Shown here in pieces: positions 2,850 through 19,618 of a stretch of 24,000 nt of DNA. Under the pieces are notes generated by a model that saw only the letters and a program-made list of their open reading frames with translations, was not told the origin of the DNA and made no database searches. Made by a program: the position numbers and the translations under genes. This DNA comes from Ilumatobacteraceae bacterium (lineage in GTDB: Bacteria > Actinomycetota > Acidimicrobiia > Acidimicrobiales > Ilumatobacteraceae). The number at the start of each line of letters is the position of its first letter. Positions within the stretch are counted from its first letter, which is position 1. The stretch covers positions 177,282 through 201,281 of the forward strand of contig CAVZGP010000010.1 of NCBI GenBank assembly GCA_963774765.1. Direction: 5' to 3'.

Positions 2850-2882
2850 TGTTCCGTCTGGGGTCAGACCCCGGACGGAACA
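2850..2882. repeat. 33-nt near-perfect palindrome of the GGGGTCAGACCCC family, located in the 5' region of the FtsH-like gene.
   Basis: The sequence is tGTTCCGTCTGGGGTC-A-GACCCCGGACGGAACa. It has 16-nt arms centred on A2866, with one T/G (wobble) position. It lies between the divergent starts at 2748 and 2913, 30 nt upstream of the ATG. Confidence 0.85.
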
Positions 2883-2912
2883 CCGTGACACCAGCGACCG
2901 AAGGGGATCCTC

Positions 2913-4697
2913 ATGGAGATGGCACGACTGAGCACCGGCGAGATGCTGTCCGGCAAGGACATCGATGCCAACGCCAACCGCGAGCGCACCCGCCAGAAGC
3001 GCCTCACGAAGTGGCTGGTGATCCTCACCCTCGTGCTGACCTACCTCCTGTGGCGTCTGGTCAACGACAACCCGATCCGCCTCGGGATCCCCGGCTGGCT
3101 GATGGGCAACCCGGAAATCATCATCGCACTTGGTCTCATCGTGATTCTCGGCACGGTCATCTTCATCCCGTTCCTCACCGCAGGAAAGTCACCTCACACC
3201 CTGCTGCGGTCCTCGGATTCGAACATCCGTCTCGACGACGTGGTCGGCGCCGACCAGACCAAGCGCGAGGCGATCGACTCGATGAACCTGTTCCTGGCGT
3301 CGGAGACGTTCCAGCGCGAGATGGGCGGCAACGCTCGCCGCGGCGTGTTGTTCGAAGGTCCGCCCGGCACCGGCAAGACGTACCTCGCCAAGGCGATGGC
3401 AGCCGAGGCCGGTGTCCCGTTCCTGTTCGTGTCGGCAAGCGAGTTCCAGTCGATGTACTACGGCCAGACCAACAAGAAGATCCGCTCGTTCTTCAAGGCG
3501 CTCCGCAAGGCCGCACGCGACGAGGGCGGCGCGATCGGCTACATCGAGGAATTCGATGCCATCGGCGGGGCCCGCAGCGGCATGAACACCGGCTCACAAC
3601 GCGAGGGCATCGTGGGTGTCGTCAACGAACTGCTCGTGCAGATGCAGAGCTTCGATCTCCCCACAGGCCGTCAGAAGTTCAAGGCGAACTTCATCGACTG
3701 GTTCAACGGCTTCCTGCCCGACGACAAGCGGCGTCCACGGCCGAAGCGCACCGAGGCCAACATCCTGATCGTGGCGGCCACCAACCGCGCAGCCGACCTC
3801 GACCCGGCGCTGCTGCGACCCGGCCGGTTCGACCGCATCATCGGATTCAACCTTCCCCCACGCGCCGATCGCGTGGCGATCGCGCAGTACTACCTCGACC
3901 GCAAGAACCACGAGGAGAAGGTCACCGCAGCGTTGATCGCGGATCTCTCGGCCGGCTACACGCCGGTGAAGATCGAGAAGCTCCTCGACGAGGCGCTGGT
4001 GATCGCACTGCGCTACAGCCGCACCTCGATGACCGTGACCGACGTCCTCCAGGCTCAACTGGTCACCGAGGTCGGCGTGGCCCACGAGATGGGCTACCAC
4101 CCCGACGAGCGCCGTCGAATCGCGATCCACGAGGCGGGCCACGCGCTGACCGCCGTGCTCACGCGCCGCGATGTGAAGATGGCCTCGATCCTGCGCCGGT
4201 CGGCGGCTCTGGGTCTGGTCGCGCACGGCGATGTCGAGGAACGGTTCCTGAAGACCCCCAGCGACGCCCGCGACCTGATCTGCGTGGCGTTGGCGGGTCG
4301 GGCCGCCGAGCTCCAGGAGTACGGCGAGGCGTCGAGTGGAATCTCCTCCGATCTCGCGGTCGCCACCAATCTCGCCTCCCAGCTCGTCGGCCAACTCGGT
4401 CATGGCCCTGGGTTGTTGAGCCTCGAGGCGGCCGGCATGCCCACAGCTGGGAATCTCGTCGCCAAGGTGCTCTCGGACGAATCGAGCCGTGAAGCCGCCG
4501 AAGCCCTCATGACCGAGGGCTCCGAGCGCGCGGCCTTGATGACGTCGAAGTACCGCGACGCGCTGTTGCGGATCGCGGACGGGCTCTGCGAGAGCGACGA
4601 ACTCGAAGGCGATCAGATCAAGGCGATCGTCGCCGAGTACGCCGACGTCGCCGAGCGCCGCGGCCCCGTTCGCATCGCCCCTGTAGCCAGCATCTGA
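2913..4697 (+). CDS. FtsH-like membrane-anchored AAA+ ATPase / M41 zinc metalloprotease; atypical paralogue of 594 aa.
   Basis: The sequence shows Walker A GPPGTGKTYLAKA, a Walker B-like GYIEEFDAIG, second region of homology AATNRAADLDPALLRPGRFDRII, and the zinc site IAIHEAGHAL. There are two N-terminal TM segments (LTKWLVILTLVLTYLLWRLV and IIIALGLIVILGTVIFIPFL). A GAAGGGGA Shine-Dalgarno sequence sits 6 nt before the ATG at 2913. Confidence 0.88.
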   Translation: MEMARLSTGEMLSGKDIDANANRERTRQKRLTKWLVILTLVLTYLLWRLVNDNPIRLGIPGWLMGNPEIIIALGLIVILGTVIFIPFLTAGKSPHTLLRSSDSNIRLDDVVGADQTKREAIDSMNLFLASETFQREMGGNARRGVLFEGPPGTGKTYLAKAMAAEAGVPFLFVSASEFQSMYYGQTNKKIRSFFKALRKAARDEGGAIGYIEEFDAIGGARSGMNTGSQREGIVGVVNELLVQMQSFDLPTGRQKFKANFIDWFNGFLPDDKRRPRPKRTEANILIVAATNRAADLDPALLRPGRFDRIIGFNLPPRADRVAIAQYYLDRKNHEEKVTAALIADLSAGYTPVKIEKLLDEALVIALRYSRTSMTVTDVLQAQLVTEVGVAHEMGYHPDERRRIAIHEAGHALTAVLTRRDVKMASILRRSAALGLVAHGDVEERFLKTPSDARDLICVALAGRAAELQEYGEASSGISSDLAVATNLASQLVGQLGHGPGLLSLEAAGMPTAGNLVAKVLSDESSREAAEALMTEGSERAALMTSKYRDALLRIADGLCESDELEGDQIKAIVAEYADVAERRGPVRIAPVASI

Positions 4698-4703
4698 CCG
4701 TTA

Positions 4704-17547: not shown

Positions 17548-17864
17548 GGGAAACAGCGTTTTTCGGGACTCGAACGAATCACGTGCCGCTGAGAACCTCC
17601 CACCGATGAGCGAACCGACCGGATACGGCGGTTTCGCTCATCGCAACCCGCGAGAATCCCCCACCGATGAGCGAACCGACCGGATACAGCGGTTTCGCTC
17701 ATCGCAACCCGCGAGAACCCCCACCGATGAGCGAACCGACCGGATACAGCGGTTTCGCTCATCGCAACCCGCGGGAACCCCGACCGATGAGCGAACCGAC
17801 CGGATACGGCGGTTTCGCTCATCGCATCGCCAACTCCAGCCCAATCCGCTGACGCCCCAGGCAC
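17548..17864. repeat. Composite intergenic repeat, locus B: the conserved flanks enclose four tandem 61/60/60/60-bp hairpin units.
   Basis: The units start at 17601, 17662, 17722 and 17782. Each contains GATGAGCGAA-N18-TTCGCTCATC (hairpins at 17605-17642, 17666-17703, 17726-17763 and 17786-17823), joined by the near-invariant linker GCAACCCGCGAGAAyCCCCCACC. The flanks match locus A. The element ends 47 nt before the ettA ATG. Confidence 0.92.
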
Positions 17865-17911
17865 CGGCGCAACCACCCGCTCGCAACGGCGCCGTTAGCC
17901 TCGGGCCCACC

Positions 17912-19585
17912 ATGGCGCACGAATTCATCTACCAGGCCTACAAGCTCGCCCGTCACTACCCGCCCGACAAGACGGTGCTCGAGAACATCTCACTGTCGTT
18001 CTACCCCGGCGCGAAGATCGGTGTGCTCGGCTCGAACGGTGCCGGCAAGTCTTCGCTGTTGAAGATCATGGCCGGCCTCGATGACGGCTACTCCGGCGAG
18101 GCACGCCTCACCGCTGGGTTCACCGTCGGCTATCTCGCCCAGGAACCGCAGCTCGATCCGGCCAAGGACGTCAAGGGCAACGTGATGGATGGCGTTGCGG
18201 AAGTGCAGAGCATCATCGATCGCTACAACGAGGTCATGGCGATGTGGGCCGACCCCGATGCCGACTACGACAAGATCGGCAAGGAGCAAGCGCAGCTCGA
18301 GGACAAGATCGCTGCCACCGACGCCTGGAGCCTGGAACGCAACGTCGACATCGCGATGGATGCGTTGCGCTGTCCTCCCGATGACGCTGACGTCACCGTG
18401 CTCTCGGGCGGAGAGCGCCGACGGGTCGCACTGTGTCGCCTGCTGCTCTCCCGCCCGGATCTCCTCCTGCTCGACGAGCCCACCAACCACCTCGACGCCG
18501 AATCGGTCGACTGGCTGGAGCGCTTTCTCGCTGACTACGCCGGCACCGTCGTGGCGATCACCCACGACCGGTACTTCCTCGACAACGTCGCCAAGTGGAT
18601 CCTCGAGCTCCACGCCGGCAAGGGCATCCCGTTCGAAGGCAACTATTCGAGCTGGCTCGAACAGAAGCAGGAGCGACTCGAACGCGAGGAGCGCAGCAAT
18701 GAGGCGCGCAAGCGCACGCTCGCCCGCGAACTCGAATGGGTCCGGATGGGCCAGAAGGCTCGCCAGGCCAAGGGCAAGGCGCGGCTCGCCGCCTACGAGA
18801 AGCTGTACAACGAGAACAAGGCGCAAGCCCCGGGACAGTCAGCGCTGGAGATCGCCATCCCGTCGGGCCGACGCCTCGGCGACCAGGTGATCGAGGTCGA
18901 ACGCCTCAGCAAGGGCTTCGGTGACCGGCTGCTGATCGAGGACCTGTCGTTCACGCTGCCGCCCGCCGGCATCGTGGGCATCATCGGCCCGAACGGCGCC
19001 GGCAAGTCGACGCTGTTCAAGATGCTGGCCGGCCGCGAGCAGCCCGACTCGGGTTCGATCAAGATCGGCGACACCGTCGACCTGTCGTACGTCGACCAGG
19101 ACCGTGACGACCTCGATCCCGACGCCACCGTCTACGAGGAGATCACCGGCGGCGCCGAAGTGCTCGAAGTCGGCGGCCGCGAGATCCACGGACGTGCCTA
19201 CGTGTCGAGCTTCAACTTCAAGGGCACCGACCACGGCAAGCGCGTCGGCGACCTCTCCGGTGGCGAACGAAACCGGGTCCACCTCGCGAAGCTGCTGAAG
19301 TCGGGCGGCAACGTGCTGTTGCTCGATGAGCCCACGAACGACCTCGACATGGACACGCTGCGGGCGCTCGAGGCGGGACTCGAATCGTTCCCCGGCTGCG
19401 CCGTGATCATCTCGCACGATCGCTGGTTCCTCGACCGCGTGGCCACGCACGTGCTCGCGTTCGAGGGCGACAGTCAGGTGCGCTGGTTCGAGGGCAACTT
19501 CTCCGAGTACGAGGAACGGCGCAAGAAGGAACTCGGTGCCGGCGCCGACCAACCGCACCGCATCAAGTACAAGAAGCTCGCCTGA
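17912..19585 (+). CDS. ettA: Energy-dependent translational throttle protein EttA (ABC-F family ATPase).
   Basis: The protein is 557 aa from the ATG at 17912 and is near-colinear with my recollection of E. coli EttA: FYPGAKIGVLGSNGAGKSSLLKIMAG, LSGGERRRVALCRLLLSRPDLLLLDEPTNHLDAESV, GNYSSWLEQK, GIIGPNGAGKSTLF, LSGGERNRVHLAKLL and C-terminal PHRIKYKKL. The track ORF (16703..19585) is an artefactual 5' extension through the repeats. Confidence 0.95.
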   Translation: MAHEFIYQAYKLARHYPPDKTVLENISLSFYPGAKIGVLGSNGAGKSSLLKIMAGLDDGYSGEARLTAGFTVGYLAQEPQLDPAKDVKGNVMDGVAEVQSIIDRYNEVMAMWADPDADYDKIGKEQAQLEDKIAATDAWSLERNVDIAMDALRCPPDDADVTVLSGGERRRVALCRLLLSRPDLLLLDEPTNHLDAESVDWLERFLADYAGTVVAITHDRYFLDNVAKWILELHAGKGIPFEGNYSSWLEQKQERLEREERSNEARKRTLARELEWVRMGQKARQAKGKARLAAYEKLYNENKAQAPGQSALEIAIPSGRRLGDQVIEVERLSKGFGDRLLIEDLSFTLPPAGIVGIIGPNGAGKSTLFKMLAGREQPDSGSIKIGDTVDLSYVDQDRDDLDPDATVYEEITGGAEVLEVGGREIHGRAYVSSFNFKGTDHGKRVGDLSGGERNRVHLAKLLKSGGNVLLLDEPTNDLDMDTLRALEAGLESFPGCAVIISHDRWFLDRVATHVLAFEGDSQVRWFEGNFSEYEERRKKELGAGADQPHRIKYKKLA

Positions 19586-19618
19586 ATTGCACCAGGGGTC
19601 AGACCCCTGCTGCAATTC
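19584..19618. repeat. 35-nt palindrome of the GGGGTCAGACCCC family, located between ettA and cysQ.
   Basis: The sequence is GAATTGCACCAGGGGTC-A-GACCCCTGCTGCAATTC, with 17-nt arms and one mismatch. It overlaps the last two bases of the ettA TGA stop and ends 19 nt before the cysQ ATG. Confidence 0.88.

Follow-up and report, generated by a model that had tools for sequence, protein, structure and literature searches.

A repetitive extragenic palindrome family and its probable RAYT transposase partner in a soil Ilumatobacteraceae bacterium

The question raised by this locus is why the same short palindrome should stand at one gene junction after another. The window analysed is a stretch of 24,000 nucleotides (contig C10, positions 177282-201281) from the 4.54-Mb, 31-contig genome of an Ilumatobacteraceae bacterium with 66.6% G+C (G000). 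Within it, the exact 13-nucleotide core GGGGTCWGACCCC was matched three times (2860-2872, 4709-4721 and 19595-19607), compared to 0.01 matches expected in shuffled sequence. A preliminary description of the same DNA, made from its letters, had taken these palindromes for a family resembling the repetitive extragenic palindromic (REP) elements of other bacteria, or for a conserved recognition hairpin that also acts as a bidirectional terminator or mRNA stabiliser. The evidence presented here points to REP elements with a cognate single-copy REP-associated tyrosine transposase (RAYT) of the Y1 HUH type, a reading to which we give a probability of about 0.88.

When the whole genome was searched, 128 exact cores were found against 0.7 expected from base composition, and a control pattern, the core read backwards, had no match in any of the genomes searched. 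Members of the family were defined by no more than two mismatches to the core together with a recognisable arm, which gave about 171 in the genome. Genes were called with a codon-usage log-odds caller made for this genome (4193 genes, 86% coding), and the centres of 139 of the 171 members (81%) proved to be intergenic compared to 13.6% expected (p = 2e-88). The genome-wide count of the core and its intergenic bias had been named in the preliminary description as checks on a REP-like family, as had a RAYT or IS200-like gene elsewhere in the genome and a comparison of orthologous junctions. Such a gene is present and bracketed by inverted copies of the family. Among the orthologous junctions, some were occupied by a REP, one was short and REP-free, and others had different hairpins.

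The gene was found with the Pfam Y1_Tnp model, which detected three genes in the genome, all of them above the Pfam cut-off (PF01797, 33-40 bits against 23). The sole NCBIfam match of the three proteins was NF047646, REP_Tyr_transpos, at 49-53 bits, the equivalog cut-off being 80. The one associated with the palindromes lies outside the window:

C11:789360-790109 (locus L002, 1429-2178): RAYT-like gene coding for a protein of 249 residues with a Y1_Tnp domain

Two inverted copies of the family bracket this gene, one (centre A) at L002 1382, 47 nucleotides ahead of the start codon, and the other (centre T) at 2130, over the 3' end of the gene. More copies follow its neighbours, pnp and tpx. The residues H63-x-H65 and Y122 (in YIHRN) were invariant in the 19 aligned sequences. 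The AlphaFold model of the protein had a pLDDT above 85 over residues 11-120, and when it was used in a Foldseek search, the top 27 matches were IS608, ISDra2 and IS200 transposases together with 4ER8, a structure of the E. coli RAYT in complex with a REP hairpin, which gave the longest fold alignment (167 columns). These relatives were detected by the fold search alone, as phmmer with the RAYT against PDB sequences returned no match. In JGI, homologues of the protein bear the name 'REP element-mobilizing transposase RayT'. The protein of this genome is shorter than its orthologues (249 against 281-303 residues), with the gap in the C-terminal helical domain, and the core of the REP flanking the gene on its 3' side is mutated (GGGGTCTGACCCA); shortening and mutation may together mark an early decay.

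Relatives of the RAYT were hosted by uncultured Ilumatobacteraceae, Acidimicrobiales. The core was present in 24 of 24 genomes of the same genus, at 3-130 copies each. Beyond the genus it was rare: 16 other families of the order had 0-2 copies, and 52 other genera of Ilumatobacteraceae had 0-14. RAYT homologues were detected in 23 of the 24 same-genus genomes and in none of the 16 outside. Each genome has one orthologue, placed between dapB and tpx, and the order pnp-dapB-RAYT-tpx was conserved in all orthologue loci with visible flanks (L005-L028 and L030). Judged from these counts and this gene order, the RAYT is a chromosomal, syntenic gene, with a single copy for each repeat family, and has probably been inherited vertically. 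In most of about 25 related loci, a centre-A copy was found 5' of the gene and a centre-T copy 3' of it, usually 44 nucleotides before the start and at the stop, respectively. The arms of these flanking copies varied by species (GATTACATCA, GTTACGCCA, GTGTCAACT, GATCACGCC and others) around a constant core, and in several species the palindrome was imperfect, with GGGGTCAGACCCG and a CA/CG mismatch.

The members of the family are palindromes of 33-35 nucleotides, made of an invariant 13-nucleotide apex, GGGGTC-W-GACCCC, and arms of 10-11 nucleotides. The arms belong to discrete types, named A (GATTTCACCA), B (GATTGCAGCA), B' (GATTGCACCA) and C (GTGTTACATCT). For types A, B and B', position frequencies gave the 33-nucleotide palindrome R-ATT-K-CA-S-CA / GGGGTC-W-GACCCC / TG-S-TG-M-AAT-Y, and class C is 35 nucleotides long, with GTGTTACATCT / core / AGATGTAACAC. 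Position -17 was C or G and almost never A, and no conserved bases appeared beyond it in the position-specific frequencies. Perfect 33-mers accounted for 45 members, and 83 of the 171 had at most one mismatch between their 16-nucleotide halves. Members with mixed arms were common (24 GG/TC and 5 C/AB). The GG/TC type was mostly tied to one centre base (18 versus 6), and therefore it behaves as an oriented, imperfect sub-lineage. Typical members, folded as RNA, had -20 to -28 kcal/mol, with z between -4.6 and -8.2. Most members are singlets, with 9 close pairs among the 171, often of mixed class. In the genomes G097 and G130, regular pairs of cores were observed, centre A and then centre T, 56-61 nucleotides apart, as doublets like those called REPINs (REP doublets forming hairpins).

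Partial duplications were also seen in this genome beside full copies, at C19:10155, C9:761544, C15 near 74433 (minus strand) and C10:118064. They break directly after CCAGG or CCTGG, which is the arm/core boundary, as in GATTCCACCTGGGG-GC-GATTTCACCAGGGGTC...TGGTGGAATC, where the outer left arm is matched by the right arm. Their breakpoints hint at cleavage or template switching at this boundary. A genome-wide list of orphan 8-mer matches to the arms consisted mostly of chance matches.

In the window, four true copies were recognised, each of them intergenic or overlapping a stop codon, and they are given here (without strand) with a fifth, core-like sequence:

2850-2882: REP copy, TGTTCCGTCT / GGGGTCAGACCCC / GGACGGAACA, with a stem of 15 bp and arms resembling class C
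4699-4731: mixed-arm REP copy, with class-C left arm CGTTACATCT, core GGGGTCTGACCCC and class-A right arm TGGTGAAATC
16703-16737: REP copy of class C, GTGTCACGTCT / GGGGTCAGACCCA / AGATGTACCAC, with one core mismatch
19585-19617: REP copy of class B'/B, AATTGCACCA / GGGGTCAGACCCC / TGCTGCAATT
2292-2304: 13-mer GGGTTCAGACCCC similar to the core, at the stop codon of the UPF0093 gene and overlapping it, not accepted as a family member

The preliminary description had counted five copies sharing the core. Three of them are exact and one is a true copy with a single mismatch (core 16714-16726, GGGGTCAGACCCA). The sequence at 2292-2304, also one mismatch from the core, was rejected as a member, its fold being no better than that of shuffled sequence (z -1.15) and its arms matching no class; shuffled windows gave about one match at up to two mismatches to the core, and this one is probably due to chance, or else a decayed relic. 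The same description had noticed a TCT immediately 5' of three cores, which was found at 2860, 4709 and 16714, and the absence of a T-tract, which holds for the four true copies of the window. The GSDP tetrapeptide that it saw recurring in spurious open reading frames corresponds to GGG-TCW-GAC-CCC read in frame. Its view of the outer arms as differing from locus to locus has to be refined, since they belong to a few discrete types, of which the window contains atypical or mixed examples. An Rfam scan of the window at E <= 1 placed no family at the palindromes.

The genes next to the window copies were annotated with Pfam. The copy at 2850-2882 lies in the divergent spacer between a UPF0093 gene (start 2748, minus strand) and a gene for an FtsH-like AAA/M41 protease (ATG 2913), presumably within the 5' leader of the latter, and the RNA hairpin predicted at 2845-2887 had -27.8 kcal/mol (z -4.5). 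The copy at 4699-4731 separates the convergent stops of the FtsH-like gene, whose TGA (4695-4697) ends one base ahead of the element, and of a NarJ/TorD-like gene on the minus strand (stop 4740-4742). At the convergent junction occupied by the copy at 16703-16737, the element adjoins the TGA (16700-16702) of a nitronate monooxygenase gene, and its core centre is the stop of a minus-strand nucleotidyltransferase gene (TCA, 16718-16720). The hairpins predicted for these two convergent copies were weak (-12 and -13.9 kcal/mol, respectively, z about -2) because their left and right arms are mismatched to each other. The first base of the copy at 19585-19617, the A at 19585, is the final base of the TGA stop of an ABC-F gene; the next gene after it, of the inositol-monophosphatase family, starts at 19638, and the hairpin predicted at 19580-19622 had -24.3 kcal/mol (z -5.1).

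Upstream of the FtsH-like gene, the motif CTTGACC occurs three times, with spacing, in the region 2775-2845 (tcTTGACCagaCCTTGACCtgcgtacgTTGACCac), and ggctacgttcggtga comes after it. The block was conserved in nearly all of 29 related loci, unlike the REP located 3' of it, and is a candidate promoter or operator.

Throughout the genome, the family was associated with the ends of genes. Elements occupied 8.6% of the convergent junctions, 2.8% of the tandem and 1.4% of the divergent ones. The median convergent spacer was 34 nucleotides with a REP and 53 without; therefore, in an occupied convergent junction the element is the entire spacer. Among the 32 members placed in coding sequence, 18 carried the stop codon of a gene at the core centre. 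When the position of the stop was tallied over the 213 gene 3' ends that face an element, its last base was at -15 in 37 cases (where TGA shares its GA with the element) and at -16 in 17, at -18 in 40 and at -19 in 15, and at -17 in only 3, whereas 17 genes stopped at a TGA in the core centre. A TGA was supplied by the terminal GA of the element, by its terminal A or by its centre TGA. Stop triplets in the three reading frames of A/B-type halves numbered 67, 31 and 8 (p = 1e-11).

A role of TGA as the target of insertion was considered and rejected. A T at position -17 was present on 26% of the gene-facing sides against 2% of the other sides, and therefore the overlap is tied to real stops and not to a target motif. 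The centre base showed no bias with respect to the direction of transcription (A or T, 46 versus 42). None of the 171 members had TTTT within 12 nucleotides of either end, and only 7 had TTT, so that the two components of an intrinsic terminator are represented by the hairpin without the U-tract. The position of the members suggests that they are transcript-end hairpins, acting in both directions at convergent junctions.

Orthologous sites in relatives were informative on how the copies change. In the leader of the FtsH-like gene, a copy with differing arms stands at the same site in ten genomes, this one included. Compensatory changes were evident among these leader copies: 6 of 15 pairs were altered on both sides, and 85% of the cells were paired against 32-43% in slid controls. 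The same site was occupied by an unrelated hairpin in several other genomes and was short and REP-free in G022 (L047). At the 3' junction of the FtsH-like gene, relatives had REPs of their own arm type, REPs with insertions in the apex, unrelated hairpin repeats, or none. The insertions, found in G047 and G043 (L042 and L043), add 5 or roughly 20 nucleotides in the middle of the core, as in GATTGCAGCAGGGGTCTGGG-ccgtcacaacctgaaccga-CCCAGACCCCTGCCGCAATC, and the unrelated palindromes, ATTCGGAGC...GTTGCGCTCAGCGCAAC...GCTCCGAAT and GGTGAGTTTCAGCGCG...CGCGCTGAAACTCACC, were seen at L049-L051, L053, L057 and L058.

Three more sites, on contig C31, were occupied wherever the orthologous copy was recovered, the clearest of them with identical boundaries (TGAc/GATT...AATC/A, slashes marking the element ends). 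The type in G024 and G016 is one of their own, GATTACATCG-CGGGTCTGACCCC-TGATGTAATC, and this genome has GATTGCAGCA-...-TGGTGAAATC or doublets. At one of the sites, the element provides the stop codon of the neighbouring gene in three species; therefore, continuity of the site with replacement of its sequence is likelier than independent insertion. From the sequences of these orthologous sites we infer a concerted turnover that would be driven by the RAYT.

According to the mechanism that we propose, the RAYT would recognise the conserved apex of the folded single strand, and would cut and rejoin it, in this way both spreading copies and replacing old copies in place. Replacement in place would therefore leave the orthologous sites of sister species with their own arm type. 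Selection would purge insertions within genes and promoter regions, and the copies left would be those packed against stop codons. The strong hairpins, of about -20 to -28 kcal/mol as RNA, would probably also serve as transcript-end hairpins that lack a U-tract.

Several observations weigh against identifying the system as REP-RAYT. Mobility is read from the copy number and from comparison between species, not within one. The proteins score about 53 bits where the NCBIfam RAYT equivalog cut-off is 80, and therefore they are placed as a distant branch or subfamily relative to NF047646. The position-specific frequencies contained no classical GTAG or CGTC tetranucleotide tag, and the copies are mostly singlets instead of REPIN doublets. 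The C-terminal domain of the RAYT is 30-50 residues shorter than in the orthologues and the core flanking the gene on the 3' side is mutated; therefore, its present activity is uncertain. Finally, no RAYT that would serve class C in particular was found in the assembly.

A more specific version of the REP-RAYT reading is put forward tentatively, and we consider it rather doubtful in full: a tag-less REP recognised by its apex would be cut at or near the arm/core boundary (CCWGG-GG), half-elements would be exchanged and copies overwritten in place, and the stop-flush copies would act as the bidirectional terminators without U-tract of this genus and as TGA donors to dozens of genes. Cutting at this boundary would explain the mixed-arm copies, the breaks after CCAGG or CCTGG and the genome-specific arms at orthologous sites.

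One alternative is that the palindromes are host-encoded hairpins and nothing else, that is, U-tract-less terminators, stabilisers of mRNA 3' ends or RNase sites, which would be immobile and have the transposase-like gene as an unrelated neighbour. Such a role agrees with the strong preference of the copies for gene 3' ends and for convergent junctions, with the hairpins that often make up the entire spacer flush with the stop codons, with their RNA folds of -20 to -28 kcal/mol and with the compensatory changes in the orthologous 5'-leader copy. We nevertheless regard this as improbable: an identical 13-nucleotide apex with one of four arms at about 170 loci would be unexpected for independent terminators, and so would the switch of arm type genome by genome at orthologous sites, and an inverted pair brackets the RAYT time and again, in most of about 25 loci as well as in paralogues with other repeats. 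A role as terminators may well be an addition to the REP nature of the elements and not a substitute for it.

Binding sites with a palindromic core of 13 bp for a dimeric DNA-binding protein, whether regulon operators or sites of the nucleoid or IHF/gyrase type, are very improbable. A perfect palindrome of 13 bp is typical of dimer operators, and the copy at 2850-2882 stands between divergent starts, beside the conserved triple CTTGACC motif, but only 10 of the 171 copies are in divergent (promoter) spacers, which is a significant depletion (p = 2e-8), and the majority come after stop codons. Moreover, the palindrome reaches 33-35 nucleotides with arms that depend on the class, and a transposase gene is associated with the family.

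It is scarcely credible that the elements are DDE-type miniature inverted-repeat transposable elements, integron attC-like sites or DNA-uptake sequences. They resemble these in being short, palindromic and located at gene ends, and neisserial uptake sequences too occur as inverted pairs that form terminators. However, neither a conserved flank nor a target duplication was present beyond -17, and 33 nucleotides leave no room for terminal inverted repeats and an interior. The copies are dispersed among housekeeping genes in both orientations, without bias (46 versus 42), and not in cassette arrays, and the Y1 transposase is the only gene consistently bracketed by copies. No complete parent element was seen that would share the termini and encode a DDE transposase or an integrase.

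The REP-RAYT reading also extends to the other two Y1_Tnp genes of this genome, each of which has its own repeat:

C11:201930-202804 (locus L003, 1042-1937): second RAYT paralogue, 278 residues, Y1_Tnp
C15 (repeats at locus L001, 925-1023 and 1896-1972): third RAYT paralogue, 281 residues, Y1_Tnp

The second RAYT is bracketed by its own palindrome family, ACGCAACGTTT-GGTGTCWGACACC-AAACGTTGCGT, with 20 exact cores genome-wide, one of them at C10:202655, just past the end of the window. The repeat that brackets the third, CGGTCCTCCCCGGCCCCGTCCCC..., is rich in G+C. Three direct copies of CGGTCCTCCCCGGCCCCGTCCCCACCCGGACCG stand on one side of the gene, those on the opposite side are inverted, and the 16-nucleotide core of this repeat has about 56 matches in the genome when one mismatch is allowed. 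None of the RAYTs found in this assembly was dedicated to class C. In two relatives, a RAYT paralogue is bracketed by class C copies, and those of this genome are either served by the resident RAYT via the shared core or a legacy.

When compared to known systems, the RAYT has the same catalytic fold and HUH/Tyr residues as the IS200/IS605 transposases, of which IS608 and ISDra2 have an established action on hairpins in single-stranded DNA. In contrast to these multi-copy elements, it is a single orthologue at a fixed chromosomal position, its flanking hairpins are mutually inverted and not co-oriented, and the repeats vastly outnumber the gene.

A close parallel in arrangement is the REP/BIME (bacterial interspersed mosaic element) system of E. 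coli, where a single-copy Y1 HUH transposase gene is bracketed by inverted REPs (Nunvar 2010, PMC2817692). As with E. coli REP/BIME and TnpA-REP (RayT/YafM; 4ER8), an extragenic palindrome of 30-40 nucleotides is present in hundreds of copies at gene 3' ends, and the RAYT is bracketed by inverted copies, the defining arrangement of PMC2817692. In contrast to E. coli, the hairpin has no GTAG tag on its 5' side, the apex is conserved and the outer stem variable, and many copies are perfect palindromes whose orientation is given by the centre base alone. The protein also differs, having 250-300 residues with an extra helical C-terminal domain and scoring below the NCBIfam RAYT cut-off, and the host is an actinobacterium (Acidimicrobiia).

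In Pseudomonas REPIN-RAYT systems (Bertels and Rainey 2011, PMC3116915; Bertels 2017, PMC5581495), as here, the RAYT is vertically inherited and syntenic, and one genome contains several RAYT paralogues that are each paired with a separate repeat family, whereas the copies described here are mostly singlets. Orthologous RAYTs flanked by different REP classes in related strains have been described as 'orthogroups' (Nunvar 2013, PMC3686654), and the arm classes flanking the RAYT likewise differ here, across species. The GTAG REPs of Stenotrophomonas are found near coding regions or overlapping them, and in many cases their terminus gives the stop of the flanking open reading frame, TAG (Di Nocera 2013, PMC3733652). 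The termini of the present elements also supply stops, and differ in that the stop is a TGA made of the terminal GA and a preceding T (26% of gene-facing sides versus 2%), with no tetranucleotide tag.

The family is thus of a known kind, REP-RAYT, and is a new family in itself, with the traits of a conserved apex in place of a GTAG tag, perfect palindromes, singlet copies and tight contact with TGA. To our knowledge, REP-RAYT systems have been studied almost only in Proteobacteria. Actinobacteria are not mentioned in PMC2817692, PMC3733652, PMC3686654 or PMC5581495, and a literature search on RAYT combined with actinobacterial names yielded no relevant paper.

For the biology of these organisms, the finding provides a clean case of a REP family with its cognate RAYT in an uncultured soil Ilumatobacteraceae, with three parallel RAYT/repeat pairs in one genome. 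The family accounts for dozens of odd open reading frame ends and for the spurious GSDP reading frames, and it marks gene boundaries. It is a possible strain-typing marker for the genus in soil metagenomes. The conserved apex, combined with the turnover of the arms between species, makes a natural series for what a RAYT recognises, and the flush contact with stop codons offers a test bed for the effects of hairpins on transcription termination and on translation termination.

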